From Bispira polyomma (Eukaryota), in the NCBI GenBank assembly GCA_965649765.1, contig OZ287757.1, forward strand, positions 10,850,001 through 10,914,000: a stretch of 64,000 nucleotides of DNA. Reading direction: 5' to 3'. The notes beneath the pieces are model-generated. The model worked only from the letters and a program-made list of their open reading frames with translations, did not search any database and was not told the origin of the DNA. Of this stretch, positions 6,979 to 54,000 are shown one piece after another. The position numbers and the translations under genes were made by a program. The stretch's first letter is position 1. Each line of letters begins with the position of its first letter.

Positions 6979-9900
6979 TTAGTCAGATAGAAAATCAATG
7001 GTTATTTGCATGGGGAACTCGTCCCCTCTACTGATATCCCTAGCCTCTATCATTAGCTCTGTGTGGCCAAATGTAACCTTGGTTTCAATCCGTTTCCCTA
7101 GCGATCCACTGGAACTACTCAATACTGCCTCGCCTAGTTTCTTAACACCTGGCTCATCAATATATTCAACCCTTTCCTTATCTGTTTTGAAAATGGTAAA
7201 GTGCATCTCTTTTTGATCTTGGAATGCCAGGCCATAAGTGAATGTTTTGGAACTCCCTGTTTTTACCTCTTCACCTTTAGAGAGAAAAACGCTGAAATGA
7301 TCTTTACATCTTGCTTTCCCATCTTTGCCAGTTATTTTCTTGGCAGGATCATGGACCCCAGTTTTGAAGATGCACCGGCTATCTGTACCGTAGGTGTACC
7401 GAGCTATGCGGCTTTTAATCTGAACTGGATTATGGCCAAATAGCACAGCCCCCTTAATGATAGCCAGTTGAGCTTCCCCTGGAATCAATACCTGAGCTAA
7501 CCTAGAGAACGCTTTTTGGCAGGCTTCCTGCAATACTTTACACTCTGCAAACCCACCCACTAGAAAGATGTATTTTAGACCATCCAACATTCCTTTAGGT
7601 GTAAGCATTTCCACATGACTTATTATCTCAGATACAGGTTCAGAGAAGAGGCCCATGGCCTTTTGATGCTTTATTATTACATAACCATTGGAAAAAGAAA
7701 TGTCAGTCTCTCTGGAAGCATTTAAAACATCTTGGATGTCTTGTCCTGTCTTGGCTTTCAGTTCTGTAGGAAAGGAGTATGGTAGCTGGACTTTAACACT
7801 GCTTTTACCATCAGGCTTTAAGCTTTTCTTAGACTTTTCAAAGGCGTTCATATAGTCAAGCCATTGCTGTGGTTGAGCCTTTTGGAAATGGTTGAGAACA
7901 TCACTTCCAAAAAGCTTGGCCATGAGTTTACAGAACTTCTTATCAACTTCTATTCCGCCCCACGGACCGCCAGATGGTGGGCAAATCTCTTTTGCATTGT
8001 CTTCTGCAAGAATCTCATGAGCTGTGATGTCTACAGTCCCACCTGGGAGAAAAGCCATACACATTTGTATATAACACAATGTATATCTGACAGTGGGTGT
8101 ATCTTACATGTAAATCATAACAAATAAGTGTGTAAAAAGAAAATGTATGTAAGATAGTCAAATTTATTCATGTGATCACAAGACAACCATTCGCAAATAA
8201 AGACTATTTGAAATCAGTTGGGTGTTGCTTTGGGTGTTACTTTCAACAGCTTCTGTTTTATTACGATGGTCAGATTTAATGCTGAAAGAAACCAGTGCTG
8301 AAGCACTGTAAATCACCGACCTACAGCAAGTACCCGACAAACTTTCCCACATGAAGTAACAAACAGGATTCAAACCCACTAAACAACCGCCATCTAATCG
8401 TCTTATCACCTAATTGTATGAAATTGTGTATTCTATTTGTATTGTATAGTTTGAGCCTGCCTGCCGATGCCTTGATCTTATGGTGCAACATGAGAATCAA
8501 TAAACCATTAATTAATTAATTAATGAGGGACCTTCTTATCTACAAAACCAACCAAGTACAACTTGGGAATATTGTGATCACTAGACTAACTCACTAACCA
8601 CAATGCCACAGATCACAATATTGTGAAGGTATTTTGAACTACTCTACATCCATTAGTTAGACTCATATGATCGCTTAAGTTGATCAATTCCAAATATTAA
8701 TATAGTCTACAGGCACGGATATTGTAAATCTAATAGCTTTGTTCTAACAAATGTGTGTCTATGTGTTTAAGGCCAAACTTACCTCCTGCATCTATAATGA
8801 GTATCTTTTCTCCAGGCTGAAACGTTTTTATCATTTGTTCATCCATGTTTTCGGAAAAATTCACATTCAGTGTTCGGCTGTAGATGGAGGCAACTTCAGG
8901 TTCTAAGGCGATCAAAAGCTGCCTGGACTCCTTTTCAGAAATTAGCCCAGCCTGTAAATGGGACATGGAGATTTTGGCCAGGACTAGATGGCAGCAGTAG
9001 TTTGGAACTAAATAAATGAATTGCCCAAAAAAATCTCCCCAGTCTAAATTTAAAACTAAGTAGTTTGTAAGACACAATATCTTCCTCAGCAAAAGTGAAA
9101 CCAAAAATCTGTTACAATAATTCCCATGCAATAATTTCCAATTAAGGGACACAAGCCATGTAGCTGACTGATGATTGACAATATTCAGTCAGCTCAGTTA
9201 GTATTCACCAATAGCCAATTTTGCTGGCATATGTTTTATAATATAGAAAGCCATGCATATTCGTGATTTGGAATCACCCATCGATTTTATATATTTCATT
9301 CATACAGTATTCACAAGGCGACAGCGTTTACTGCTAATGGGAAAAACTTAATTTGGGTAGGCCATAACCAATAGCTAACTTTTGAGAGAGTTTCGAAGGG
9401 AGGTCACAATGAGACATGATCCAATATGTAATAGGTACATAAAGTGAGCACAGTAGCCAATGCACTTAGTTTGTTAATACTCCAATAAAAAATTTGGAGT
9501 CTGAAGAAACGTAAGCTTGACACAACTGTGTCTGATGTTCCTGGTATATGAGAGAATATTGACGTAGACGGTTTGACATACTATACTTCACATATTTGTG
9601 TGCAACCAGGCCAGACTTTGAATTAAATTCCAAATTTAGGTGAGTTTGAATTTGTATATTTAACGTCCACTCTAGTACCTTTTAGTAGGTTATATTGGGA
9701 CAGGTATTTGGAAACACTGGAGGAAACACTGCATACAGTCAGTCAAGGTTCTGCAGAGAAACCAGCGGCCCACAGTAAGGAACTACCACCTTTTCACATA
9801 GCCATCGGTGGGATTCGAACTCACGCCGCCCAGAGGTGAGAGACCAAATTTAGGTGAGAGCCATGTGAAAACATAATAAAATTTACCCTATATGCAGCCT

Positions 9901-12900
9901 CTCTCATAAAACCTTTTGCCTCATCGCTCCAAATGGCAGGGACGGTCAGCACCCAGCGAATATCGGAAGTAGTGGGTAGGCTGTGGAATAGTAAAGATAT
10001 GTATGCATAGGGTTATTTCTGGTAGGCAAACCTACGTAAGGATTATTTACCTAAGTGACATAGCTGTCTTATTTCGTGCACTCATCACATATATAGACAT
10101 GTCAGTCAGCCAAGTAATCGTTATATTTATCACACATATAATAACCTATTAATTATATACTATATATATTTATATCATGTGAAAGTAATGACTCTCGACA
10201 GTATTAAAGCTGTATTTAAAGCTATGAACTAATAACAGAGAAGTAGCTCAGATAAATAACGCATAGAGTGCATAGATTTTACACTTTGAGAAACAAATGG
10301 TGATAGTTGTGATATGATAGCTTCACCATATATTTTTGTATTGGTCAGAAAACCACCAACAAATACAAAAGTTTGCTTCAGTGACAAGAAGGCCATAAAA
10401 TTAATGAAGGAGCAAGTAATATTCAAATTTACACTGCAGTTCTCTGTGGTAAAATATGAAGGTCAAATGAAAGTCAATATGATAAATTATAATTGAAGTT
10501 TAATAATGAACTATGGTTTTAGGTATTTATTTTTCTAAACATTTTAGTTAAAAGTATGTACAGGTAGGGGTAAAATAAGCAATTTTAAAATATAATAATT
10601 TTTAATTTTAACACCCACGCCAACTAAGGGGAAACTAGTATAGTACTGCTGGTATAGCAGAGGCAAAAGTGAGGGAAACCTCAGATGTATCTTCAGAATT
10701 TTGATGGAGGTAAGACCAAATAGCAGATGATCTCCAGAGACCATGTACCATAATGTACTGGAATAAAACATTATTGTTTAATGCAAGGGAGCATCTCGTG
10801 ATAATGGTCTGGATTGTAATAGCTGTTGAAGAGCCTGGACTGGACATAGGGTCAAATTTTTTAATTAAGGAATTTGTATGATGTGAAATTGTGACCTATT
10901 CTGGAGATTCGTAGCCCATTTAAACATCAAATGTGCTCCAGGATGACCAAATATGACTTATTTTCTAAGGAAATGGCATGTTCGGTCAAACTTAAACCTT
11001 GAATGGGGAGCTATTTTTGAGATACAGAGATATCCGAAAAAGGCAACCATAAAAATGGCCCTGAATAGTAGTTGATCATTAGATTGTCATAAGCTTTGGA
11101 AATGAGTAGTAAATAATGCGTTTGGAAAATGCCCTTAGGAGAAGGCCTGAAAGAGGAGGTATGTGTTAATCTCCTTGTAAAAAGTGAAACAGTGTTGTTT
11201 TAGAATATATTAATATCCCAATACAACTTGTTGGCCATATGTTTTATGGCTGCTTCTGAGTGATGAAGTTTGCACCTGTAATTATATATTTAAATCTAAA
11301 TTAAAATAGTGTAATGGAATATTCAACCATGTACAATAATCCCTTAAAATGTTAACCTGGCCCTTTGAGGGGGTTGGTCAGAAAAAAACCTTGACAATAA
11401 ATCAGCTATGATGTTCTTTTTCCCTTAATGTGTTGAATTTTGATTGTAATACCATAAGTTGCTGAAATTAACCAAAAGTGCCAAAAAAATTCTTCTTTAG
11501 TTTTGTTGGACCCAACTACTAACACTACAGCCATCTTGTCACAGTTTAAGAATATGCTTTTATGGCTCCACTGCTCACCCCATGCCTTAAGTGCTAAAAG
11601 TGTATTAAGCATCTCTATATGAACTATGGATAGGTTTCTACCATAAATATTGTAAAACGGTGTAGTATGTTCATGTATATTGCCCCCAATCCTGTGAGGC
11701 AAGCGTCAATAAAGACCTTGTTCTTGTGCTTTTTCACAATAGGGTCAATAAACTTTAACCCGTTATATGAGGGGAGAAATTTTACGAACCATAGAAAGTC
11801 AGCTTTCATTTCCTCTGATATCTCGAAACGTTTAGCTTGACTATTATTCCTGAAAGCCATTGATAATCTATTAATAAACATGTGAGCCGGCTTGACACAT
11901 TTGTGTACATAAAGTAGTTTACCAAGTATCGATTAGAATTTTGTATGTGAAATTCACGTTTTGTTGACTACTTCTACACAGATTTTGTAGGTTTCTCTGA
12001 GTTTATCTGGAGTACTACTAATTGTACCTTTTCCTATGTCAATATCTATACTTAGGCATGTGATTTTTAAACTGAGTTTTGAAATTTTTTCTAGATTAAG
12101 GGGAAACACCAATTGAGTAACCAGTTCATGTAATTCGTCAAAAGATATGTCTGCTTGTTCGGAAGTTGAAACTCCAACGTATTCGTTGATATAACAACAA
12201 TTTTTATGATTATTCTTATTCTAAGTATGAGCTATTACATCAGAACAAGGCTGAAACGTAGCCAAGCCCTGGACCCAGCCGAACGCCACTGTAGGATCAA
12301 TGTATTTCTGGTTGTCAAAATGGATGCCTAGTATCATTGCATTGACTGGATCAACCCTCAGGTTTCGAAACACCCGGGCTACGTCCAACTTGTAAATGTT
12401 CGGGTTGTATGTGTTTCGAATTTGTTCCAGAATGTCGTCAATAGTTGGAAATTTTAAAGCAAAATCCACCCCATCAAATTTTTGTCTGTCCATGTTATCG
12501 TTAACTGAACCATCCCTGTTGTGAGAGAGGTCAGCACATTCGTCAGAACAAGGCTGAAACGCCGCCAAATTGTGGACCTAGCCGAATGCCACCGTAGGAT
12601 CAATGTATTTCTGGTTGTCAAAATGGATGCCCAGTATCATTGCCTTGACTGGGTCAACCCTTAGGTTTTGAAACGCCCGGGCTACGTCCAACTTGTAAAT
12701 CTTCAGGTTGTGTGTGTTTCGAATTTGTTCCAGAATGTCGTCAATAGTTAGGAATTTTAAAGCAAAATCCACCCCATGAAATTTTTGTCTGACCCGTTAT
12801 CGTTAACCGAACCGTCCCTGGGGTGAGAGAGGTTTAAAATGACTCGTCTTTTGTCCTTATCTTTGGGTCTGGTGAGCAGTGGGAAACAGTAAAATAATTT

Positions 12901-15900
12901 ACTATCTATTTCTAGCTAGGGCCTAACATTGCACCACATTGTTTTTCTTTGTCAATATATTTCTCAATTGCTGACTTATGCTAAATGATGATTGATAGTT
13001 TCCTTAATCTGTAAACTGGCAGTGTCTTGCAAAGACAGAGGAAAGCCGAATTTAATATATTGGATAAGTAACTCATCTGTATAGTTTCTAAGAACTTCCT
13101 CCCAGGCCCCAACATTTAAACCTGAAATTAAGGGGACCCCTGCCCCTCTATAATTAGGACATTCCGTGTCCTTAATCATTTGTGCAACTTCAGACATTTG
13201 TTGGATGGGAGTAATATATACTGGGGCCCTGTCAGGTCCTATAAACTTAAATTTGTTTTCTGAGATGGTCAAGAAACTTTTGGTTTTGTGTGGAAAGTTT
13301 GTGTCCCTAGCTACACGGGTTGTACCTGTAGTGTCGTGTGAATCAATTTTTGGAAGTTCAACTGAGAAGTCGGACGACGCAACTTTACCTTTGTGACAGG
13401 ATTTAACTGTCTTGACCTCTATTGGTCTGTGATTGCTGGCTGTAGACATTTTATTTACATTAACATCTGACAACAACTCATCAATAATGTTACTTACATA
13501 CTCTGTGTAATCTACCTGATATTTCTCTTTACAAGTAATAAATTTTTGGTAATTGTACCAAGCATTGTTTGCTAACTTTCTATCAGTTTTGTTCCAATGT
13601 TGCACCATGTGCTTGTTATTTCTATAATCTAGCAGTTGGGAGAAAATTCAATTGTTGTAAAGATGTTGTAAACCTGTTTGTGATAACCATTTCCCGTACT
13701 GGTGGGTGGTCACACTTAAAGTATTGGTCTCTTTGACCAATTTTCCCATCCTCCAACATGTACAATCCTGAAAACTGTTCACACTGGATAAACACCACAG
13801 ACAGCCTCTGGTTCTTTACTGGAACATAATACAACCAGTTAGTGATAGAAATCATAACACTTACTGGTATGGGCTACAATGCCAAGTGTCATTTCCACAA
13901 ACATTATTGGGGCCGCGGTGGCCTAGTGGTTAGCAAGCATTGCGCTTCACAATCACTGGTCTCTCACCTCTGGGCGGCGCGAGTTTGAATCCCGTCGATG
14001 CCTATGTGGGAAAGGTGGTAGTTCCTTACTGTGGGCCGCTGGTTTTTCTGCAGAACCTTGACCGACTGTATGCAGTGTTTCCTCCAGAGTTTCCAACTAC
14101 CCGTCCCAATATAACCTACTAAAAGGTACTAGAGTGGTACCAAAAGTATTATTACCAGTATTTTTAATTATTCTATTGCCCGAGTTAGAATTGTCTACAG
14201 GAACCCTGTGGTTTATGTGTCATTCCAACATAGAAGCACAATCACTTTCACCTATTCCCTCGTCAATGTTTCTAGAAACCCAAGAGTATTTGTTATTGTG
14301 TTCACTAGACTTGGTACTTGTGATTACCTTCAGTGCACTGTCGTCAACAACTTTAGTCCCATTCGATTGGGACATATTGTCTTCAGTAACCCTGTTTCCC
14401 TTTTTGACACTGTTGTTATACTGGTGGAGTTTAGTTTCCGTTCTATACTTGGTAAAACTAGTTTAAAATATATCAGTTTATAACTTATCATTCCTTATGG
14501 TTTTCAGAACATTATTAAATAAATTTTTTATTATGAATTTAACCATTGTCTTAATCTTACGGTCTCATGTCCCCAGTACTAGTAGGTGGCCATTGTCCAA
14601 GAGGTTAGAAACTTGCCCGGAATCCAGCATTTCCCCGAGTTGTAAAGTTTACAAATAATCTTCGTCGCCCAGTTGTAACTAGAGGTAGAACTGCTACTGC
14701 TGCCTTTGGAGTTAAATATAGCTAGTTGTGATGCACTAATGCGGTTGAGCGCCCATTGGGTGCTGTCGCCCTGCTCCAATCCTCCTTCTTCCACATCTGT
14801 CATAATGGTGGCCCAAGCCGTGTGGACAACCTCCCAGGGTAACCAGGACGCATCCCGGAGTGTTAACCCAATTGCTAAATCATTTCCCTAGAAATCACAG
14901 AGTCTGTGACCTGAAGAGCGTTTGCCAGATGGCCGGAAGCCTACTGGGGTAGGATTAAATCATCGAAAGGAGGTTGTTTGCTTGCTGATCCGCCCGTCCA
15001 TCGCTCATTAGCCCATCTCAGGATTACTAGTCGGAATGTCCATCATATTGAATCTTCCTGATTTTTGTAAGAGGACAGCCTTACCTTGGCTAAATACTGC
15101 TTGCTCCTGCAAGTTGTATTCAGCGAGCCTCTCATTCACGATGGCTTGAATGTCTGGCAAAGTTCTTAGAATGTCTGCCTTCAGTAGGATGCCGTCAGTG
15201 GTATAGTCAGTCCTGCTGTGATGGCCAGGTATCGGTAGAGACAGAGGAGCTGTGATACTGCCTGCTAACGGGACCTGAGAGGTAGCACCCTCGGAAACCA
15301 GTCCAGGCGAGACCCTGCTGTGATGACCAGCTGTGATACTGCTCATTAAAAGTACCTGTGACTATGCATATCCACCCTCTTGGCAGTGCTTTTTCTTGTA
15401 GTAGATTTTTTAGTTTTGCCTTCCATTGCTGGAGTCTTTGTGGTACGAGTTCTCTCCATTATCACACAAATAAAAACGTAAAAAGTAAATAGTATAATTA
15501 AAAACAAACTAATAAGTAAAAAAACAAAATCAAATGGAACCAACAGGGCCTTCATAAGCTTAGCATAAAATGTATGTGTTCTCCTGTTGATTCCTTTACC
15601 AATATGGATGACAATATGCTAGCCAGAAGGTTAGCTTTTGGAGAGAATGGCTCTGATTGGTTGTATGAAAAGAGGATAGTGAAGCAACCATTTGCTAGGG
15701 GTTAAGGTAGAAGGTAAAATTTACTGTGGGTGAACTGAACTAGCGGACCCCTATTGGGTCTTGCTACGCAAAAAATGTGGAAATTAGTGTAACTAATGTA
15801 GAAGTGCATGCTTAATATGGGGCGCAAGGATAATATGATACATGAACATCTCTGTCTGTATTGCACATCGAATGATGATATCTCATGACTGAGTGGATAA

Positions 15901-18008
15901 TAAACTTACTTATTGGGTTATGTTAATGTCATACAATTCAATCGAAAACCACAGTACAAATTATGGCACATGGTGGTAGCAAGGTTGGTAGTCGTTGTTT
16001 TTCACTTATACAGCTCCCAGTGAGTTGAACTTTCAGACTGATATCCTTAATCATACAAGTTCATGCTTTCAGTCATAACTTTTCATGCAAGATTATCCCT
16101 CATAAAAGTTTCACTTAGTACTCACAGTCCAAACATTCATTTTATGAACTCCATTAAGTACCAGGATCCATATTCACCAAATAAATTTGAGTAGTTCAGA
16201 ATTAGACTCCATATGTATATCTTGTATACAGAAACAACATGTGGTTGTGACCATTCTGTTATATGAGTCACAGTTAAGCCTTCGATATCGGACTATTCTA
16301 TAAGTCAACTATATGGATATGGGGACCTCATAGGATGCCTGGACATCAATTGTGGGCTTTACCTTACAAGTGCCTTTGTTATAGCTTCCATCATGTGTTC
16401 CAGTAAATACTTAAGCGCCATGGTAAATATGTCAATGGCCTTGGTGATGTGTCCACTTGTGGAAACCACGGTGCTATTGAGGTCCACTTTCTGTTTTAAA
16501 ACAAGGTATCAACAGATTTTGTTTAAATACTTGCATAATGTAAAGATTCTATGGTAAGAAAACTGGGCTAAACTGCATTTCAATAAATTATGGTATGATT
16601 GATATCAATATATATCACAATATTCGATTTTGTCTTTCAGAGATGCCTCAAAACCTTCAAAAAAATATCTATCCCTATATTGTAATCCCTACACTCGTTG
16701 TCCTAATATATATGTTTACTTTAGACGTCAATTAAGAAACCAACTCTGTCCAGAAAATCTTTGATTATATCTTTTGACTATACCTTTATAGTCATTGTGT
16801 CCTGGTACAATTTTCCTGTCCACTCGACTACTGAACAAATATTTTGATTGTTGCGCTTTAGAATCATTAGATCAGATTAGATTAGTGACACTCACTTTGG
16901 AACAATCAAAGCCTGGAATGACCAGGTACACGCAGATTCAGTAGAAATTAGCTTGGATGAATAATTATGATTATCTGCCATTGGGTACTATTGAGAGTGT
17001 CAAGTAAAAGAACCTTTGGGACTTTATTTATCATCCCAAAGTCTCTCATTTCAGTTAAGAAAAATGCAGTTACCGATGTCAGTTGGATGTTCTTGCACTG
17101 TCACAAAGACCTTAATAGTGCTTTTAGTACCAGATAAACTTAAATAAAGTATACATTCAAATTTAAAATATTCAAATGTACAAAGAAGTCTACCATTACA
17201 GATGGCATGAGATGACTTTCTGCTATGTATAGCATTTTTCTGTTATTACTGAGAAAATAATTCAAGACTTTGTATCTCCTTTGCTCATCACCATCCTTTA
17301 CAAATTTGCCATTAATGCCAATAATTGTGTGTATTAGAGAAGTACTGATAGTTTTTGTCTTTGAGCTGAGATTAAGAATTTTTAGTCTCTGGCCGGGGAC
17401 TTAAAACAAGTGCAATTACTAGATCCTCTGTCCCTAATGGATCTGTGCTTTAGCTAGATCTTTTAAAGTCAGCCTCCCGAATGCAGATAAAAGGCAGACG
17501 AATCATTTACTTGAAAAAAAATCCAACCATTTTCCAGTATTTGTTGAGGTATTTAGTAAATATTGACAGAACACAATATAAACTCAGAATCCTCTCTCTG
17601 CACCAAACACCCTGGTAGAGGATTGAAACACAATATTTTGCAATTCATATACAAAATTACCTGATTATGGAGCATCATCTTAAAGTGTCTATATAAGTTG
17701 TACCCATTTGGTCCCCCAATCTCAACCTCTTCATCCGTTGAATCTAAATGACTGAACTCATGTTCAGCAGTATAGCCAAAACTGTGAAAGGATTTGTCTG
17801 GGTTGGTCATGACGCATGTAGGAGTCTTGTAGGAGGAACACCCCAGTTCGGCACCCCAGTTCTTGTTCATGCTGATGGCGCTCGGTTTGTACTTGAAGGA
17901 GAAGGCATAGCCGCTGAAGGTGGTACCAAAATCAATTGCTGCCACCAGTAGGTAGTTCTCCTCTAGTGAGAGGTTCTTTAATGTGTTTGACAGGGCCTCT
18001 GCCATCAT
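6979..18008 (-). CDS. HSPA12: Heat shock 70 kDa protein 12-like (copy 1), intact; coding exons 18008-17661, 16490-16363, 9980-9887, 8951-8783, 8042-6979 (1803 nt, 600 aa)
   Basis: HSPA12 motifs AIDFGTTFSGYAFSF, WVLTVPAIW, ALEPE, DAGGGTVD (across exons 4/5), SGGPWGG, LVGGFAE, IKGAVLFG. All four introns are GT-AG with compatible phases (0,2,0,1) and the spliced frame is open. Confidence 0.93.
8210..8610 (-). mobile_element. Old SINE-like remnant interrupted by a short plus-strand LINE-like 3' end with (ATTA)n tail (~8410-8524)
   Basis: Degenerate B box (ggattcaaaccc) and A box (ctaaccacaatgccac) separated by an AATAAA + attaattaatta segment. Confidence 0.4.
9645..9843 (-). mobile_element. tRNA-derived SINE (family 2), 5'-truncated, in HSPA12 copy 1 intron 3
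   Basis: 15-bp TSD ccaaatttaggtgag (9630-9644, 9844-9858); empty site at about 26230-26246. Confidence 0.88.
12240..12833. repeat. About 303-bp tandem duplication inside the El1 RT
   Basis: 12240-12531 vs 12543-12833; the peptide KFPTIDDILEQIR...AFG occurs twice. Confidence 0.9.
13909..14137 (+). mobile_element. tRNA-derived SINE (family 2), nested in El1, 3' tail lost
   Basis: A box TGGCCTAGTGG, B box GTTTGAATCCC; near-identical to 39636-39898. Confidence 0.85.
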
Positions 18009-18782
18009 TTCATGTCACACTCTGGGTACAAAGGAAAACAATAATACTTCTATTGCATTGTGTAATATATTTTTATGATAATTAAACGACGGCAATGACG
18101 CCACGTATTGGGGCTGACAAAAAGTGTAGATTTAAAAGTCGCTATCTTAAAATACATTATGTATCAATTAATGAGTGGGTGAACGGCTTAACGTCCAAAG
18201 GGCATATCTAAACATGTTATATAGTTATATATAGTCATATTTATATCAACATGTCTGTGTATCACAGCATACAGTTCACTGGTAAAGAAAATCAGAAATG
18301 AGTAGTTGCAAAAGGTTTTCTGTTGTGCAAACCACTGGCCATTAAGCAAATCTACTGCCACCATTCGCACATACACGTGGTGGCCTAGATTCAAACCCAC
18401 TGAGAGCCCTTGACATATATATTTATATTTACATCTAACTATATATAATACATAGCCTAAATAAATTATAAATAAATATACCTTTTTACACATTGGACAT
18501 ACATATCTATAAAGCCTGGGTATCAACTCAATTTCTCACATACACAAATTAAAAGTGGTTGATCCAAGAATTTGTATCAATTTATCAGATATTATTGTAA
18601 CTGCTGCCATTTGATAATTAAACAGTTTGTAAATTCACACATAATTGCAAAGAAATACTTACATTTGTTGCTAAATATGATGTTTCTGATCCAATGTGGT
18701 GCTTTTTAAAGTAGCACTTACACAAATGTTATCCCAAAAACAATTAAGCAAATTCCTTTTACTCACTCCCTCTCTCTCCAGA

Positions 18783-20724: not shown

Positions 20725-22930
20725 TCGGCCACAGAGGCATTAGCAGACCAGGCCAGCCAACGCGGGTGAGGACCCAGCACCTATGGCACAGATTCGCCTA
20801 GCAGAGGGGAGTCCTGCGGCCCGTTACAGCTCACCTTGGCAAACCACGCACAAGTTGGAAGATAGGAGACAGGACCCGCCCTCCACACAGTGCGTGACTC
20901 AACCCATCTGAGGCTGACCAGGCAGATAAGTGGATATCTGCCAATGAACCTGAGACCCACAAACATAAAGTCTAACTAAAACTACTAAAAACTAAAATAC
21001 AATAAAAAAAACTAGCTAATGTTTACTAACTCGACCAGAGCTTGAACACTTACTTTCGTCCTTACAAAAAGAAAATACAAAAAACATGTAGCCTTCGCAG
21101 AGGCTTGTATATACATATAGCCTTGACAAAGGCTGCTACGGTGAAGTTGTATTCGCATATTGTTTACTTTACACATTATTCAACCTCTATATCGCCTACA
21201 GGGGGGAAAGCGATTCACCCATTATTCACGGCAATTAACAAATGTAAGCAAAAGAAAATAATGTTGAGGCAACTCACTTGTAATTTGTGAAGGTTGTTTT
21301 AATGGACGCAAATCAGACTCATACCCAATTACATGAAAGTATTTCTGATGAATTTAGCCAAAATTTAGTTGCCAAAGGGACTGGGTAAATATTGATTACA
21401 AGGTGGACAGTATTTCGCCATTTTTAAGCAATGATATATATTTGCATTACAATATTACTTATAAGCTATATTTACAATAATAACTATAATATTTAATAGT
21501 TTATCTACATGATGCATATAATGAGAAATTAAAAACAATCAGCAATACAGTCCAATAACTCATCAGAAGTACAGTGTAATCATCAATTTTATAATGTGAT
21601 TAGGTGTAATAACCATATTTATGGCGAAATGCTGTTCACCACAAATCGCTGTCCCCCCCCCCCCCCCCCCATGTATACTTGGGTAGATTGCCTTTTGGGA
21701 CAGATGGAGGGTGGGAAGGTTCCCCTCTAAACCACGAGACTTGGAATTCAGAAATGCCTCTGTGGCCCTGGCATTTTATGATATACAATATACATTTACA
21801 TTGAGAACAACATTAAATCACCAATGTGCAGTGATATTATATGCCTGTATTGTTTGGGCATTATTGGTGTCCTTGAGAGTGTTTTGTGTGCAAAGACACT
21901 TCGTATATCTGCTATTGACAGGGAGAGGGGAGAGGAGGTGTGGGTTTTAACATTTAATCATAACCTTGCAACAGACTCAAGACTGTGATCAAACTGATTT
22001 GATTAATAGAAAAAGATGCAAATAAGTAAAATCTAACACAGTACTTAACCATACTTATACTTTCCATATGAAGACATCAGTCTGTGACATTTTAGGAAAA
22101 ACCTTAAGAGCAAGTAATTGTTTAAATTTGATATTTTCGTAATCCAGTATTATTGTCTTCCCTGAGGCTTTTATATAATATATCAAAACTTGCAGCAGTT
22201 GCCAAAACTGGGTTGTGAAGTGAACTAAGGACGCGAATACGATTTAGGTTTAGTAGTGTGACCTATGGGATTTTTAGGTAGGAAACCAGATGCTGTTTGG
22301 GATATATATATTTCTATCTACTGCCTCTATGTACAACTATACAAATAAAATTTTAAGGTAAAATTTTAAAAATGCCAAAGCCAAATTAGAAAGTAGAAGA
22401 GACAATAGAGGCAAAGGTAGAAGGAATGATGGAGGCTGCATGAGGGATGGATTGTAAGTTTGACCAAATAGCATTGGATTTCCAGCAGCCATGTTTTTGT
22501 ATATGTTGAAGTTTTACATTTGAGTTGAATGCCAGTAAGGCACCAGAACATCTTAAATAGTGGAATGAATGACCTCCATGCGGGGTATGAAGGTGAGTGA
22601 GGATGTTTTTTAGGGTAAATCTGAGCTTTGTGTCTGATAGGCAATTACCTTTATCAGATAGGTTTGCTAGCAATGTAGCCATTGTGTCTAACGGGTATTT
22701 GTCAAATAATACTGTGACTGCTCTCACTGGGTACAACCAATGATTTCTTAATAAAGATAGTTGAATGATGTCTGGGTTTGACCTATTTTGATTGGTCTTA
22801 GTCTACTTAAGGATGAGGTGGACACCTGGTGGGGTGAATAATACGTCAGGCCTTGTGAGATGTCTTGTAGGATCAAAAGGTGAGCTTGAGGTGGTGGTAA
22901 GGATAGAAATCCTCAGAAAACCAAAGAAAG
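20725..22930 (-). mobile_element. 3' remnant of a further Ngaro/PAT-like YR element (El4): YR fragment ~22930-22386 and downstream non-coding region
   Basis: FLRIS, HSFHYLRCSGA, HGCWKSNAIWSNL. The AT-rich post-YR sequence and the GC-rich segment resemble El2. Left boundary approximate. Confidence 0.65.
21402..21640. repeat. 19-bp inverted repeats around an AT-rich core (MITE-like), followed by poly(C)
   Basis: ggtggacagtatttcgcca / tggcgaaatgctgttcacc, 2 mismatches. Confidence 0.55.
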
Positions 22931-23929
22931 CAAAGACAGTGGAAAGAGAGAAAACCCACCTCACCTGATTTGGGCAAGCATTTTATGACAGACTTTAAAT
23001 TTATTCAGAAAAAAAGGCGTCTGTGGTATGCCTGAACTTCCTGAATAAATGAGATACTGGCCAACCTGGACATCTGGTGGCGCTCCATGAGGGTACAGGC
23101 TAACATCCAGAGACGAAAAAAGCCTGGGCATGACCAGCATGCTAACAAAACCTGGGCAGGGGACCAGTGAACCAAAAAGTGAAAATGTTACAGTGGTAAC
23201 ACATTTCTGTTGCACAGTGTAGATTTGATATGTCAGTAAAAAAATTCTTACAGCCTATAGGTTAACAACTGAAATTAGCTAAATTAGTTGAAAGGTCCTA
23301 GTAAATACACAGAGCTGATTGAGTTTAAGTTTTTAAGTATGGGGACACTCACATGGATATGTTTAATACATGTGTGTATAACTGCTTTATACTCCCACAA
23401 GCAATGACTCACACACTATGTAATTGTAGAGCACAATTTTTTCTGTAATTTGAGTGAAAGGTTTATGTGCACACAAATTTCGAGTTAATGCTATGTAGAG
23501 TTAGTATCCTAACATAATTGCTTAACTATATATAATCCTGTAACTATAGATATAGATATTCGAACAGGACATTTGTTTACAAAGAAGTAAAAATGTAGGA
23601 GTTCCACCTTTTAGCTGATTTTTAAAACTACAGAATAATCCACAAAGTTACTTGAGGGAATATTCATAAAGTTCACATGTAGAATATATCAATTTCAGTT
23701 ATTGGCAATGTTTCTATGATTTCAAGCATATGTGACCGTTTCGGCTTGGCAGTTTAGCAATTGCCAAGTTTAGGGTTTAGTACCCACTCATTTGTAGGTT
23801 TAGGGAGTGCCCAGCACAGGAAGCATAATTCCGTATTGACATTTAAAAACAGTTATTTGACAGTGACATTGTCCCTTACTTGATTAAATAGATTTGTTTG
23901 ATTCTATGTATTCATGTAATTTATAAGGG

Positions 23930-34452: not shown

Positions 34453-37400
34453 TTAATCTGATATGAAGTCTACAGTAATGCTCAGTGGATAACAGTCACC
34501 TCTGGCTCCTTTCTCTCTTGCTTCAACGCGCAGTTCCGTATGACCAAATGTAATTTTTGTCTCAACACAGTCTGTCATAACATTGTGTAAGCTTGCTACC
34601 CCTAGCTTGTGAACACCTGATTCATCAACATATTTCACAACTGCTTTGTCTGCTTTAAATATTTCAAATGACACTAATGCGTTTGTTTTAGAACTTCGAG
34701 GAAAGTATTGAATTCTTGCTGCTCCAGAGTGCACTATATCTCCTTTTTTTATTAATGTATGGAATACATCATTGCACATTACTTTACCATCTATATTAAC
34801 AAATCTTTTGGCAGGATCGTGCATGCCTTCTTCAAAATAAGGTTCAACTGCAATACCATACGTGTATCTGGCAATACGACTGACTATGTGCAGTGGGTTA
34901 TGACCAAATAAAACAGCACCTTTCATGATGGCCACCTGTGCCTCAACAGGAATCAATACCTTGACTTTATCTGAAAACATAGACTGGCAGGCATCTTGTA
35001 AAATCTTGCATTCTGCAAAGCCTCCAACAAGAAGTATATAGTTGATTTCTCCCAGCGTCTTATCAGACAGCAGCTTCATCACATGGTCTACTATATTGGT
35101 GATGCATTCTGAAAACAAACCCTTGGCCATTTCATGTTTCACTACTATGTAACCATTACTGAAACGTATTCCTTTGACTTTTGACTGTTTAACAAATTCT
35201 TCAAGTTCTAACTGCATCATCTTCATAATATCTTTCTCAAAAGAGTAAGGGACAGGTATTTTAATGGAGCACTTTCCATCAGGCACCAAAGCTTTTTTGG
35301 ACTTTTCAAAATTCGTCATGAACTGCAGCCACTGCTGAGGTCGTTTTGTTTTAAACTTGTTGATAAAATTACTTCCAAACATCTTAGCTAGTGTGGAAAC
35401 AAACTTTCCGTCTACCTTAATTCCTCCCCAGGGACCTCCAGATGGAGGAGAGATTTCTTTCACCTGACCTTCCGTCAGTATTTCATGAGCAGTGATGTCA
35501 ACAGTTCCACCTAAGTAAATAATAAGTAAGTTTTTACATATTATTCGCAACTGTGCAAGGGTTACAACCTCCAAATATCCTCAAGGTTGATATCATGTGA
35601 TTACTTTCCCATGAATTGACTTTTACAGTGATATGAAATTATATTTTTATTACAGTAAAAATGTTATCATGAGTATAATTTCAAGCAGTGCTAAAGAGTA
35701 TTCTCACAAATGATTGAAGACAATTATTTGTGAATTTCCATAAAAAATTGTCCACACTAATATATATACTTGTTTCATCTATTTAACCATACACACCTCC
35801 AGCATCAATGATGAGCAGTTTCTCTCCAGAACAGAAAGTCAAACCATCCGATGAGTTACCTTCATCAGAGGTAAAAGTATTAACTTGAAGTGACCGACAG
35901 AAAATGGATGTAGCCTCAGGTTCCAAGGCAATCAGTAGGTTGCTGGAATTTTTCTCAGATATCAGTCCTGACTGGATAAGTAGAACATGGACAATGTAGC
36001 TCGGTATTGACCATAAGTCATTCACATGCTTATTAAAATACATTTAATAAATTTTACCTTGTTGTTTCCTTTTGATGCAATCTTTACCATAAGATATCAG
36101 TATAAGAGGAAACACAGAGTACTATAATATTAAAGACCAAATTTGAAACATGTTTTGCGTGAACTATAGTTTGTACCCTTGTTCAGATGTCAAATCATTT
36201 ATTGTCAGCGAAAACATAATAAATTTTAAACCTAAATTTAGAATGAAGTTTTCATTGATTTTGAGCGAAATGTGGCAGAATACACATGTAGTGAGAATAC
36301 TTACCCTGTAAACTGCTTCTCTCATAAATCCTTTAGATTCATCATTCCAGATTGCAGGGACTGTGAGGACCCATCGAATGTCTGAGACCTCTGGAGGACT
36401 GTTAATGTGTGGTAAATCACTAATTAGTGTGTATACCAAAAACATATCATCAAGCCATATGTATGCAGTAGATGCCTTATTGGTTATAGTGGAAACCAAG
36501 ATCTATAGGGTGATGATGTTACTTACAATCTGCATCAACGACCACTTTCAAACCATGACCATTTGGATATTGTTACAGTTGGGAAACCTCCAACAATCTT
36601 TGCATTAACATTGACCTTAAAAGCCATTAACCCAACCTTTAATCAATTACCTCCATGAGTATTATGTATCCCTGATTTAACTTGCATATATATATATATT
36701 CAGTGAGCAGTATTCTAATATCCACACAAAGTAAAGTGTCCCAACACTATGTGTTGTCATTTAATTCCCGCACTAAACCCAGACACTTGGACATTTTATA
36801 TCTGCAATTTTTCAGACTGCTATTTAAGACTGTGGTTAACTTCAAGAAATGTTGGAATAAAATTAATCAATAACAATATAACGGCTTCCATTTATATTTA
36901 GTAAAGTATGTTAGAATATAGAATTAACTATTATAATAGCTTCTATAATCTGACAATCTATTCAGTAATATTATTAATGCTGTAAAAGAGTAATATGTAA
37001 AGTGGGTTTCTCACTAACATATTATGAGAGACTCTTATGACATACGATTTTAGTGCTTTTTGTATGGGGTCCATCATGTGCTTCTTAAGGTGCTGTAATA
37101 CCATGACAAAAATGTCAATTGCTGGCCTAATGTGTCCACTGGTAGAAACCACTGTACTGCTCAAATTCACATCCTATTGGATAGAAACCAACAAGAAGAT
37201 TGAATAGTAATTTATAGTTGGGTTTAAAATCACAACTTCAGAGATTATAGGTTTCAATCTCGCTTTCGAGAAGAACAAATACACGTATGTGCAACATTTG
37301 TATGGGTATCTGCAGTGGTTTTCCTTAAAATTACCATAGACGTTTACTTAAGACACTATATATCAAATGGTGAAAAATGCATTATACATTCATACTGTAG

Positions 37401-37909
37401 TAAACTAGATCTCTTTACTCTTTCTTATAAACAGTTTAAAATAGGGAATAAATGTTAGAAAAAAAACCGATTTCACTCGTATTTTCATACCTAGACTATT
37501 GTGATAATATAATAACAAATCAAACACCCTAATTAATCGCAAATATTAAAAACTGCTATTTCCTTACTTGATTGTGCAGTAACATCTTAAAGTGCCTGTA
37601 CAGATTGTATCCATTTGGTCCCCCTATTTTATCATCATCAGGATCTAGCTGATTGTATTCATGTTCCGCCTTGTATCCAAAACTATGAAAGGATCCATCC
37701 GGATTGGTCATCACACAGGTTGGTGCTTTATAAGAGTCACATCCAAGTTCAGCCCCCCAGTTCTTGTTCATCTTTATGTCATTTGGACTTGTTCTAAAGG
37801 AGAAGGCATACCCACTGAAGGTAGTTCCAAAGTCTATGGCTGTTGAGATGATGTAGCTATCTTTAAGTGAAAGGTTTGTCATGCCATCATCTAGTGATTT
37901 TGTGGCCAT
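34453..37909 (-). CDS. HSPA12: Heat shock 70 kDa protein 12-like (copy 2), intact; coding exons 37909-37568, 37173-37046, 36398-36305, 35971-35797, 35510-34453 (1797 nt, 598 aa)
   Basis: Same motifs and intron positions/phases as copy 1 (exons 2 and 3 are 128 and 94 nt in both); GT-AG splice sites; open spliced frame. Confidence 0.93.
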
Positions 37910-39635
37910 ACTAACTACAAAAATAATCAAACAGAAAAAAAGTATAGTATAAAACATGTCCCAGTTGGCAATAACCAAAGCAGTGGATACAATTGCAAAA
38001 TCTACATTAATAGATCAAAGAGTTTTACACTGTTAATGTAATGATATGTGACACCAGGACTGGGAGCAACTATTATTTATTATTATTATGCATTTTTAAC
38101 GCGCTTTATTGATGTTAGGCATCTTCTAAAGCGCAACAGCAGAATCAGTGATCCAATCGTAAAGTCCATGGGCATAGCAAGGTTGTAAGGGTAGAGGGGT
38201 TAACAGCTGGTTAATCAGCAAGCAATCAGACTGGGTGTTAACCCACCTCATAGCATCCCGTTGAAGATTTGTGATAATTTTCAGCATGGTTCCTGCCTGC
38301 TTGTTTACCCTGGTTAACTGGAACTCACATGGATTACTGTGACCATCGTGGTGAAGCTGTACCTTACATCACCATATAATCCATTCAAAACTTAAAATTT
38401 AAACTTAGGCAGGAACAAGATATCGTAGCAGCAAACATATTCTAAAACTATGGTATGGCTAGCTGCAATAGGTTTTCTTAAAAAGTGTTAAAAAAATCTT
38501 GTGTCAGCCATTTTGTTTTTAGGCTTCGCCTGTTCAAACATTCACAAAAAGATAAATTGTGTAATAAAATTGGTGAATATATCTTGTTTAATCATATTAC
38601 ATCATGTTTAAAAACATTGGATCGGCTATCTTCTTTTTTTTAAATATGGCCAAATTTCAGCAGGAGAGAGATATTATAGCAATGAAATATCATTTGGTCG
38701 GGCTAGCCACAATGGTTAAGCTATGAGACTGTTAACGAAGAAATCTTTACTTCACTTATGGTGGCTATTTTGTTTTCCAGGATGAGAGCCAAATTCAATA
38801 ATTAGATACAGGCAAACTGTAAATTTGGTAAATATAAAAAATTATTTTTGAGTATTAGACATATACTAAATTTGGTAAATATATAATGGCTTCAATACGA
38901 ATGATATAACAACTTTTTAAAGAAGTTGTAGCATATTAGTTTTAAAATTAAGGCCAAACTTCAGGAGCAAAATATTATAGCATTCAACATATCCCGAAAC
39001 TTTTGTGACGCACACCCGACGATTATATTTATGCAATGTCATGTTGCAGTAGTAACAAATATGGTACTGAACAGGCACAAATAGATGTGATTTCATGTTG
39101 ATTATTACTTCATGTTTAACCAGCACCAGGAAGCAAATGTTTGTATTTCTGGTATATAATATTACAAAAGTAAAACGAAAGTAAACCAACATTAGGTGCC
39201 TTAATATATAAATTCGAAAAAAAAAAATAGTTTGCAAATAAATAATCACACAGTAAATTATATTTATGTGCAATAAATTGCTTGTAATCATTTCACCAGC
39301 GTTACAGTTAATTAGCCAAAATACAAGATTGGTGTTTACTCTGTTACTTGTTGGTTTTAACTATCCCTAAGATTACTGTTACATAATGTTCACAGTTGGC
39401 TCAAGATTGATAATTTTTTTTCATATATATTTGTACCAAATATTTGAAATCACTGAAAATTTACTAAAATTGTGATGAAAATAATTTATGTAATATTTAT
39501 TTTGTTTTTAGGCAGCAGAAAAGGTTGTTACTTTGAATATTAAAAGAATAACCAGTCAGTTTATTTATTTTTTTTTTTTTTGTCTTTCTGTTTTTACTGT
39601 CTAATACTCTAAAATCATTTTTCTGTCCTATAGAA

Positions 39636-39898
39636 TTTGAATTTTGAATGTGAATTTGGATATTTAACGTCCCTTCTAGTACCTTATAGTAGATTATATT
39701 GGGATTGGTAGTTGGAAACGCTGGAGGAAACACTGCATACAGTTAGTCAAGGTTCTGCACTAAAACCAGCGGCCCACAGTAAGGAACTACCACCTTTCCA
39801 CATAGGCATCGACGGGATTCGAATTCACGCCGCCTAGAGGTGAGAGACCAGTGATTGTGAAGCGCAATGCTTGCTAACCACTAGGCCACCGCGGCCCC
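39636..39898 (-). mobile_element. tRNA-derived SINE (family 2), full length
   Basis: A/B boxes, caaatt-type tail, 9-bp TSD cctatagaa (39627-39635 and 39899-39907). Confidence 0.88.
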
Positions 39899-44884: not shown

Positions 44885-45178
44885 TTTAAATACTTGAAGC
44901 AAGCTTCTAATAATGGCGACCGCCCAAGAGTGCCAAGCTCCCTTGGAGCCGGTCTATATTACTCTACATCCTGTAGGTGGGGAAGGGGAAAGTAAATGGT
45001 GTAAGAATCTAAATTATTAAAGTTTTATTATTTAGCAATACTAGTGCACTGCAGTTTATAAATATATTTTGTCATTTATTTAAGTACTTGAGGTGAACTT
45101 CTAACATTAGCGACAGCGTAAGGGTGCCCAGCTACCCTAGAGTCAGCCTATATTACTCTACATCATGTAGGTGAGGAA
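44885..45178. repeat. Two diverged copies of a ~100-bp hairpin-forming unit in the El2 3' spacer
   Basis: 44885-44985 vs 45078-45178 share cttctaa, gcgac, gtgcc.agct, ctatattactctacatc.tgtaggtg.gga. Confidence 0.7.
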
Positions 45179-46034
45179 TAACCTTAAGGAAGCGATAAGA
45201 TGTAACTAAACCAGTAATTTAACCATTAACATAGCCATACCTCTAACTTACTTATCCCTAATTCATAAGGTCAAGCAATGGGTGACTTGGCCCTATTGTA
45301 ACAATGGAATGAGTGAGATCCCCCTGGAAAACTCTAAATTTTTCAAAGAAGTGTACAAACGAACTATGACAAACCATACCAAGTTCTAACTACAATATTG
45401 GGAGGCAATCAACCAGCCCGGAACGGATTAAACCCCGGACCTGCGACACCGACTCGCCTAGCCCCGGCCAGTCCCTGCTCGCAGAGCTCCGAATTCCCTT
45501 GACAGCCACGCCAAGGGCAAGTTTATGGAAGCAGGAACCGAACGTGACACGGTCAAGGCTCAACTTGCCCCTAAGCCAGCCGTCCCTCAATCAAGTATAC
45601 TTTACTGTGGTAAGGGGAGGTGGTGGGTTTCAAAATGTCTGTGTTGCTCGTTCAAATCTCGAGTTAATAATGCTAACAAAATGGAGGGGAGCAGTCATGG
45701 GTGACTAAACTTGAATTTGATTGGAGGTTATCACATAAACAGGAAAATAAAGATTATGTGTAACCTAAAATTTTTAAGGTTGGATAAATCTTATGTTGGA
45801 CTGAACTAACAGACCCCTAGAGTAGTCGTGTTGTGCACAGTCCAAGTTCTAAGATGTGAAAGCAATAAGTTAAGATGATTCCCAAAGAAGTTTGTTGGAA
45901 TAAGTTTATAAGTCAATGAAACTCTGTTTGAGGATTTGATTTTTTTACACTTAGTTTATATGTACATGTACAGATAAGATGTAAAGTAATAAAAATTTTA
46001 AAATTATTTCGAAATTTTTGACACCCAAGCCCAA

Positions 46035-51055: not shown

Positions 51056-54000
51056 TTTCTTCTTATGGATCACATTATACATAAATAATAACTGGATGTA
51101 TAAAACTAAAAACAAACTAAAATAAAACAAATAAAAATACTATATACATTCCAGTTTTTCAAAATGTCTGTGCTGCTCGTTCAAATCTCGAGTTAATAAT
51201 GCTAACAAAATGGAGGGGAGCGGTCATGGGTGACTAAACTTGAATTTGATTGGAGGTTATCACATAAACAGGAAAATAAAGGTTATGTGTAACCTAAAAT
51301 TTTTAAGGTTGGATAAATCTTATGTTGGACTGAACTAACAGACCCCTAGAGTAGTCGTGTTGTGCACAGTCCAAATTCTAAGATGTGAAAGCAATAAGTT
51401 AAGATGATTCTCAAAGAAGTTTGTTGGAATAAGTTTATAAGTCAATGAAACTCTGTTTGAGGATTTGATTTTTTTACACGTTAGTTTATATGTACATGTA
51501 CAGATAAGATGTAAAGTAATAAAAATTTTAAAATTATTTCAAAATTTTTGACACCCAAGCCCAACTTAGAGGAAGGAGGAATGGTGGAAGCGAAAGTGAG
51601 GGGGACAACAGAAGGTTACAAAATCAAGAGTGGAACCTATAAAATTTTGCTTTTGGATAATAATTTCGAAACATTTGCACAGATTTAATTCACATTTGAG
51701 GATGTAATTTGAGAAAGTTAGTTGCAATGCATATATACCGTAAAGACGGTAAAATCTGCGGTTTGTGTTCTCGCTTACATTCTATATGTATGCAACACTT
51801 TCTAAATTTGTTCATGGGGCGATTTTAGTGAACGGCTTCTCATAGCAAATGCACAAGCATCAATTTCGCTGATCACTTAAGTGCTTTCTGTTACTGGTTC
51901 TTGAATAAGTTATAACAAATCTGGCCAGTCTTACCCGTTCTTTTAGGCTTTATCACCATTGTTTTAAAATACATACCAACTAAGAAATTAGTACAAAACT
52001 TTACCTGCAAATATATTCAATCTTACATTTTGTTGAGCCTATTGTATGTGTTACCACTACATTACCAAGGCCCCCTGTTCGGCCCTACAGATATTCTCAG
52101 ATAATTAGACAAATGACAGAAACAGTTTAGGCCTATGGTTCCTTTCAGTCGATATTTGTCGGTCAACATCGGTCGAATATTTTGGTCCCTATTTGATGTT
52201 AGGAAGGGCTTTCTTTCAACATATTTTTGTCAGATCCGATCAGATGTCTGTTGATGTTCTGAGCAAAAAAACTGGGAGGTTATCTGATTTTTAAACAAAA
52301 ATGGAAAAATTTAAACTTCATGTCGTTAATGACTCCCAAAACTATAAGCCAATATTCATAGTTCTGATCTCAAAGTGTAAAAAACGAGAAATTACATAGA
52401 AATAGCAACACATGTAGAAACAAGCAATCAACAAATCAGAAACCAAAGATGGGTTCCTGTATTTAAACTTACATGTATCGACAGATTTTGATGGAATACA
52501 GTAAGCACAATAATCGCAATAAAATAGTATTTCTGACATCATTCCACCAACATTCCACATTCCACCAATATATAGTACATATTGGATGAAAGAAAACTCT
52601 ACATCAGCTGATGTCAGATCGGATTTAAAAAAAAACGGCTGACGTCGGGATTAGCGGAAAGGAAACGTAGGCTAACAGACAGGTATACAATATGTGATTT
52701 TCAGTGTCTATTTGATATGTTTCAATACAATATTTCAATTGTGATAGAGACTATTTTCAAGGAAAAACCTAAGCTATATAGACATTTGGAGTTGCTGGTC
52801 CCATATCTGAGGGAATGGCTGCATTGAATATCTCAGAAATGCAATGATTTTATAGAACAAATATTACATTTATATGTGTAATAAATTATAGCTTTGTATA
52901 TATATGTGCAGTTTATCAACCCTCAACACTGCATCACAAGTAAACCAATGATGTGCTAGATAAACACACCCAGAGATTAATATTTGTAGAAAGTGATGGA
53001 TCATGTGTTACACTCAGCATGAGTTTAATTTTACTGAGATAAGGCCAGAGTAGAGCATCACTTTAACTGGGCAGCAAAGTGTAGCAGTGATAAGGTTTTA
53101 AGTTACTTAATTCCCACTACACCAGCCCTATACAATCTCTCTCTTTACAGACAAATTTTAGGAGAGCAGATGCTGTTCTTTAATCAACTAGTTACTCTTT
53201 GTATGGGGCAATTAAAAAAAATAATCACTCTTCATAAAATATTTGTTAAATTCTTAACTTTTTAAAAGTTTGTTTTTGCTATCAGTATTGTGAATTGTGA
53301 ACCCTACTGGCGCCTCTATTACTGATTTTTTTTATTAATATAAAAAACAATATACCAGATTTGTAATGCCTATCGATTCCTAGAAATTATCTTTAACACA
53401 GAAATACACCCATATTAAGGAAAGGTCTTAGCCAGGTTTAAATGTTAATATACTGAGACTTTTTGTCTTAGTCTAAGCAGTATTCACAAAGCAGTTGGGC
53501 TAAAGTTTTAGCTTAGCCAAGGGCTTAACTTCAAGACAGGTAGGTAGTGGGCTTAACTTTAAAGAAGAGGGTCTTTGGCTTTTTTTTACATAACATTAAC
53601 AAATAAAGCCTTGTACTTTTAATATGAACCATAAGCAAATTACAGTTGATAGTATGATTTTAAATTTCAAACAAACTCAACTGTAAACTACAAAGAATCA
53701 GATAAGAGTTCCATTCAATATATTGCCACTTATCTGTTAATCAAATTCTCTTCTTGCATGTGTTTTTGTATTTCCCTAAAACTGTGTGTTCTGTACAGAT
53801 AAGAGTTCCATTTAAACTACATAGCCACATATCTGTAAATCAATCTTTCTTGCTGCATGTTATTTCCTTTAAAAACCAATGCAGTATGAGTGGCTGTAGC
53901 GCTACTTGCTGTATTATAGATCTACATATTATTAAAATTTTAGAAACACATAATGGCTGCTAACAAACAAGTTTGTCTGGTTAAATTTTGCCCAGTGATC

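Follow-up and report, generated by a model that had tools for sequence, protein, structure and literature searches.

Layout of the locus

In the window, a 64,000-nt stretch of the 1.04-Gb Bispira polyomma genome, there are several remnants of retrotransposons whose genes are gag, RT/RH and a tyrosine recombinase (YR). The island at 20725..20970 is an old, broken copy of an approximately 145-nt RNA module of Ngaro-like tyrosine-recombinase retrotransposons, and this window copy is dead and rearranged. The island and its surroundings comprise the following features:

20727..20741, no strand: left copy of a 15-bp inverted duplication, at an inversion breakpoint at the module 3′ end; exact reverse complement of 21753-21767
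20738..20946, minus strand: outer stems specific to the subfamily, present; 75-79% paired in 12 copies, weak covariation
20760..20908, minus strand: module core, a three-way junction, in a decayed copy of an old subfamily; 100.6 bits with model R1 (this copy being in the training set), and covariation
20971..21195, minus strand: upstream spacer of the same subfamily; BLAST homology to 21135, local alignment to L037 until about 21195
21240..21700, no strand: unrelated very high-copy repeat in the inverted segment; contig depth hundreds- to thousands-fold above background
21753..21818, plus strand: right copy of the 15-bp duplication and displaced B-repeat start; matches what lies just past the module in 14 of the 27 other copies
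22193..22937, minus strand: YR gene remnant (22386-22937) with its own B1 near 22193, of another subfamily; tblastn, relatives at 77-89%

Because 20727-20741 and 21753-21767 match in inverted orientation and the sequence at 21753-21818 adjoins the island elsewhere, about 1 kb has been inverted here with a 15-bp duplicated breakpoint, an event that broke the copy. In L036, whose layout is B-A-module-B, the displaced B-start sequence flanks the module on either side. Contigs from three runs of one study, perhaps of the assembly's own sample, cover both junction regions without differences, with one contig spanning 19500-21264.

The island had been placed downstream of a YR gene, which holds for the family and is probably coincidental for the window copy. 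The relatives of the YR remnant carry a B repeat and a module version both unlike the island's, so that the island is probably not the tail of this remnant, nor the remnant its parent. The very high-copy repeat and the inversion breakpoint lie between the two, no A2 follows the remnant's B1, and the matches of its relatives stop at 22188-22281. The island has 27 other genomic copies (67-86% identity, mostly fragments). No intact parent element of the island's own subfamily was found. At L172, a YR fragment on the same strand precedes a module-less copy, with a break between them. C9 copies of the island's subfamily adjoin another element in opposite orientation; three of these had suggested the window plus strand as the sense strand, a reading that we dropped, since there the B2 of another element abuts the module copy and many intact elements have the opposite orientation.

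A conserved three-way junction

The initial annotation described the island as a rod-like structured RNA on the minus strand, built of nested long-range inverted repeats, and all of these are present in the sequence. On that strand the outer stem (20738-20747/20937-20946) is paired at 10/10 positions with one G-U, the next (20751-20758/20912-20919) at 8/8 with one U-G, and the third (20764-20770/20898-20905) forms seven pairs and a bulge, while the hairpin 20845-20851/20890-20896 matches perfectly over 7 bp; in the two outer stems, the mismatches are indeed G-U pairs on the minus strand. As a structure of the family, the nested stems were not borne out in 12 copies of the same subfamily: jointly, the four have 75.5% of cells paired and 7/32 pairs changed on both sides (70/500 shuffles), and the weakest, the 20845/20890 hairpin (68.3% paired), clashes with the covarying fold. 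A competing perfect hairpin does exist at 20921-20928/20935-20942 and is unsupported across copies (64.8% paired, 315/500 shuffles). The rod model itself is not supported, the covarying fold being a three-way junction inside a long closing stem.

This fold was drawn from a MAFFT alignment of 26 diverged copies; of 41 non-redundant candidates, those that were broken, inverted or false were left out, and L095 was added. It consists of a closing stem P1, a long P2-P3 arm topped by a hairpin P4, and a 4-bp hairpin P5 that follows a UA linker:

20770..20900, minus strand: closing stem P1 (20900-20887 with 20784-20770); 12/14 pairs changed on both sides
20801..20886, minus strand: P2 (20886-20881 with 20806-20801); 4/6 pairs changed on both sides
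20801..20886, minus strand: P3 (20877-20868 with 20818-20809); 10/10 pairs changed on both sides
20834..20854, minus strand: apical hairpin P4 with a conserved G/U-rich loop, damaged in the window copy; 5/7 pairs changed on both sides
20785..20800, minus strand: UA linker with P5 (4-bp hairpin, 6-nt loop), where the sequence is most conserved; 99-100% paired

Across the 26 copies, 85.8% of cells of the named structure are paired and 31/46 pairs have changed on both sides, with 0/500 shuffles on all five measures; since the rows share ancestry and also supplied the structure, the shuffle counts are not probabilities. Slid controls pair at 39-50% of cells. All 20 held-out loci match the model (88.4% paired, 27/41 pairs changed on both sides, in an alignment fitted to the structure), and in 22 held-out matches, again fitted to the model, covariation once more exceeded shuffles and slid controls. 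P5 is nearly invariant, with no pair changed on both sides, and in some young copies energy folding favours a continuous helix over it. P1 contains a near-invariant A at 20782, drawn bulged, beyond which two pairs vary mostly on one side. A candidate pseudoknot that would join the P4 loop to a pentamer downstream is 83.9% paired, also without change on both sides. In the window copy, pair probabilities in P2 and P3 are close to 1.0 except for the last P3 pair.

The 246-nt island folds more stably than its shuffles on the minus strand (z = -2.91, 0/200 shuffles), the plus strand having z = -1.55, and the 149-nt core of this decayed copy taken alone reaches only z = -0.97. Young copies have z-scores of -5 to -6.5 on either strand (-6.5/-5.9 and -5.2/-5.4) and others of -0.9 to -3.3, and windowed z-scans do not separate the two strands. 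The minus strand as element sense, which the initial annotation had assumed, is borne out by 204 G-U versus 36 A-C cells on the named pairs and by a same-strand YR directly upstream at 26/50 pattern-selected loci. Conservation is not codon-like: only 322 of 1209 pairwise indels, in comparisons that are not independent, are multiples of three, and 10-11 of 78 frames per strand are free of stops, which argues against a protein-coding remnant. In Rfam no family matched within the island (four chance-level matches all lie outside it), and covariance models gave 0 matches at four loci with young copies. The fold is thus real, conserved and well supported, among copies that all come from one genome, and what had been proposed as a structured sense-strand RNA domain without a known family holds as a non-coding domain of YR retrotransposons.

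In L097 the P3 arms enclose the inner part of the module in inverted orientation (L097:8362-8497), and in L307 and L313, two distant elements with near-identical repeats, the module is shortened, P4 being missing or reduced.

The host element

Intact relatives have the layout A1-gag-RT/RH-YR-B1-A2-unique spacer-B2, with the module homologue on the sense strand of the A2-B2 spacer. The three genes all have the same orientation in tblastn maps, and both repeat pairs (A1/A2 and B1/B2) were recovered at 12 of 20 loci. Pfam gave phage-integrase SAM and RVT_3-like matches, partly below the cut-off; an RH frame of 285 amino acids continues into YR and has no Dam match, and hence no methyltransferase domain. 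Judged from these maps, the host element matches Ngaro in gene set, split direct repeats and missing methyltransferase, with the A2-B2 spacer in addition.

In 14 elements, the unique spacer measures 421-1259 nt and contains no ATG ORF longer than 88 amino acids. AATAAA or ATTAAA is present in all 14 B repeats, and in the A repeats TATA occurs in 4/14 and CCAAT in 9/14. In intact copies, A1 and A2 share 94-100% identity. At the A2 end lies a C-rich tract, with a mean C fraction of 0.69 versus 0.18 after A1 in 14 chosen elements; in eight further ones the A1/A2 identity ends at this tract exactly (five), within 10 nt (two) or not there (one). It stops there in L089, L091, L095, L102, L147-L151, L154, L250, L262, L263 and L267, among others. 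The C-rich tract is a polypurine tract on the antisense strand, and no consistent self-complement that could act as its self-priming partner was found. A G/T-rich tract precedes B1 just past the YR stop, and most B repeats terminate in ACTG. The ends of insertions map to the B|A joint, a long way from the module.

The window also carries a near-complete element of this kind:

45420..45570, minus strand: second, younger module copy in its spacer; R1 109.8 bits, the copy being outside the training set and its subfamily inside
B1 46027-45838, A2 45837-45628, B2 44398-44239, minus strand: its repeats

At its 5′ end (51157-51614), the last YR codons, B and A are found instead of A alone, resembling a head-to-tail remnant. 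Within its spacer a 100-nt unit (44885-44984 and 45079-45178) is repeated at 79%, a trait of this subfamily that is kept in relatives.

Distribution and portability of the module

An 18-nt core pattern has 667 exact matches in the genome and a second core pattern 172, with 0 in the control for each. Thirty pattern-selected loci comprised 16 with YR directly upstream, three with RH upstream and YR downstream, and 11 without a coding match upstream; 20 more comprised ten with YR upstream and flanking B repeats, two A/B-flanked minis, two coding fragments and six with none of these. Neither core pattern had a match in metagenome or viral contigs, and an RH protein query returned no locus in metagenomes.

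In a quick tree of 30 elements (L095 scored as with and L263 as without the module), a clade of 15 has the module, as does the L139 lineage, and a lineage of 13 lacks it. When relatives were collected by their YR and tail DNA, independently of the module, it was present at 8/9 and 11/14 loci, some of the 14 overlapping. The lineage without it gave a single weak opposite-strand match in 30 short loci and a single decayed match, away from the element tail, in 20 long loci, and a structured counterpart was sought there with scattered z-scores only (12 shuffles), none common to subfamilies. Because this lineage is large and young and has the same repeat layout, the module is not universally needed. 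Its members also have the C-rich tract, the G/T-rich tract and the ACTG end.

Proteins of L139 are 34-36% identical to those of L089, L151 and L156; the module cores are 92-95% identical and are the sole match between the elements themselves. Elements of the L139 family carry the module between RH and YR. Seven older copies of this relocated family retain a core 83-96% identical, flanks 62-79% and YR coding sequence 86-90%; the family was recently mobile and holds copies 95-97% alike. Among L139-L141 and L269-L291, which have the module in this position, 17 distinct copies have a readable B end: 15 end at B, L276 continues into A2 and a second B, and L291 is an A-B mini. Module and protein trees (short alignment, FastTree) disagree at L148, L095, L139 and L295/L311. 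The module is portable between lineages and positions. Precise stand-alone units without it also exist (L096, L291).

Possible roles of the module

We tentatively favour a role in cis, in which the module would mark the full-length RNA for capture and copying by the element's own Gag and reverse transcriptase. The A repeat would act as promoter and the B repeat as poly(A) signal; since B carries the poly(A) hexamer and A promoter-like words, a transcript from A1 would reach the spacer only by read-through of B1. A module positioned between RH and YR would fall inside a hypothetical gag-to-YR intron, and spacer and intron would both be missing from a plain spliced, B1-ended mRNA. LTR edges are set by priming sites, and the similar end of A1/A2 identity at the C-rich tract suggests that first-strand synthesis may start there, at the A2 end, 150-350 nt before P5 of the module, which would then hold the 3′ part of the RNA until the spacer is copied last. 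The same C-rich pattern at the A2 end holds in the module-less lineage. For DIRS-1, the accessible parts of the literature give the primer as unknown and the RT as acting in trans (PMC7192593).

Several observations weigh against parts of this proposal. The discordant module and protein trees would suit a partner from the host, or an autonomous activity, no less well than a Gag or RT partner, the relocation to a place distant from A2 speaks against a fixed role at the site of priming, and the stand-alone units without the module count against the cis role. Rival explanations stay alive because one lineage lacks the module and because it has been swapped between distant proteins. Of the functions that the initial annotation had offered, packaging or priming would still fit, and self-cleavage is disfavoured, given that the module sits in mid-element in one family that was recently mobile.

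Less probably, the module may bind a host factor that exports or stabilises the unspliced read-through RNA, by analogy with CTE and RTE, which are retroviral transport elements. It would work with proteins only 34-43% alike, has been swapped between lineages and is flexible in position, and the hypothetical gag-to-YR splice would create a need to export unspliced RNA. Yet the CTE loop hexamer occurs in 0/23 cores; no paired internal loop that is U-rich on both strands, like that of an ENE (poly(A) clamp), was found, a run of four U occurring in only 1/23 cores; and the module is absent from one active lineage and has no Rfam match.

A separate non-coding RNA, running from an A2 promoter to B2 and serving in trans as an RT scaffold or primer, is an unlikely alternative; the module would be its working part. 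The near-identity of A2 to A1 and the spacer without a long ORF would suit such an RNA, as would A-module-B minis that begin exactly at A in 6/30 loci, of one subfamily, and the SIRE of VIPER, which in the accessible text shares the A2-unique-B2 make-up (PMC6681497). One family, however, keeps the module constrained between RH and YR with no A promoter ahead, and the minis may come from A1/A2 recombination, as has been proposed for solo AB repeats (PMC8547959).

A new ribozyme class, self-cleaving or branching via the bulged A, is a shade less likely still. Invariant unpaired or wobble bases do cluster at the junction, the module is portable, and hammerhead or HDV-like ribozymes are described from other retrotransposons in the accessible text (PMC6765202). 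No core sequence or topology of a known small self-cleaving ribozyme was found by Rfam or by core words, those of hammerhead, twister and pistol being absent on the sense strand except for GAAA in 1/23; the candidate pseudoknot lacks changes on both sides, and mid-element cleavage would cut the genome of the family with copies 95-97% alike. Equally doubtful is a broader reading in which split-repeat YR retrotransposons would use the module as their initiation device, an RNA that is portable, binds RT or is catalytic, and may prime via the bulged A; B1-A2 would then behave as one LTR between two priming tracts, and the spacer would be copied last, closing the circle.

Least probable is a fold that acts in plus-strand single-stranded DNA (cDNA completion or recombination) or is a template-switching by-product between inverted repeats: the DIRS-1 cDNA is largely linear and single-stranded in the accessible text (PMC7192593), young copies fold about equally on both strands, and the inner segment is inverted in L097, but G-U pairs and loop bases are conserved on one strand, insertion ends lie far from the module, and constraint on it is far above that on its flanks.

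Relation to known systems

According to the accessible parts of the literature, Ngaro, of the order DIRS, has the structure A1-ORFs-B1A2B2 (PMC9210276, PMC4157794, PMC8547959, PMC3783388) and shares several traits with the host element: the genes run gag, RT/RH, YR, the direct repeats are split, RH and YR leave no space for a methyltransferase between them, and solo A-B copies occur. It differs in that the elements described here have a unique A2-B2 spacer of 0.4-1.3 kb with a covarying RNA module, which Ngaro descriptions in these published parts lack. No paper on structured RNA in Ngaro spacers was found in the openly accessible literature searched. VIPER/SIRE of Trypanosoma cruzi likewise has an exclusive internal region between A2 and B2, and an A2-to-B2 unit that occurs alone, but this region is about 30 bp long, with no structure reported in the text available, and gene order and host are different (PMC6681497). 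DIRS-1's internal complementary region (ICR) is also a non-coding internal cis element downstream of YR-retrotransposon genes; as described in the accessible text, it pairs with the ends of the element, whereas the module folds on itself outside both repeats (PMC7192593). In self-comparisons of intact elements we found no inverted match between the module and the element ends such as an ICR has.

Retroviral packaging signals, the hepadnaviral epsilon and CTE/RTE are compact cis folds that single out the full-length RNA; with no sequence or Rfam match, they resemble the module by analogy of role alone. The hammerhead and HDV-like ribozymes of Penelope, R2, L1Tc and retrozymes are portable folded RNA modules in retroelements too, but in the accessible account they sit at element ends to free the RNA, and their cores are absent here (PMC6765202).

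The way in which YR retrotransposons choose and prime their RNA is an open question, stated as such for DIRS-1 (PMC7192593). With the module there is a defined fold of 145 nt that covaries strongly and exists in hundreds of copies, along with natural swaps between lineages, relocation and absence, from which deletion, swap and binding tests can be designed, and the C-rich tract at the A2 end would offer a second, base-precise prediction of the cDNA start.

Other features of the window

Two further YR-element remnants lie at 10600-15230 and 62535-63270. Relatives of the former carry the module (11/14 loci, some overlapping), and the window copy is without it. The retrotransposons are interleaved with segments at 6979-9188, 17553-18014 and 34453-38014, which look like exons of duplicated genes resembling HSP70-12 and have no Pfam match. 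A short interspersed tRNA-like repeat is present in three copies (9641-9846, 13909-14137 and 39645-39898), and a repeat of the same type is inserted in the module-bearing copy L042. Finally, a broken non-LTR retrotransposon with an RVT_1 match occupies 57464-59410.
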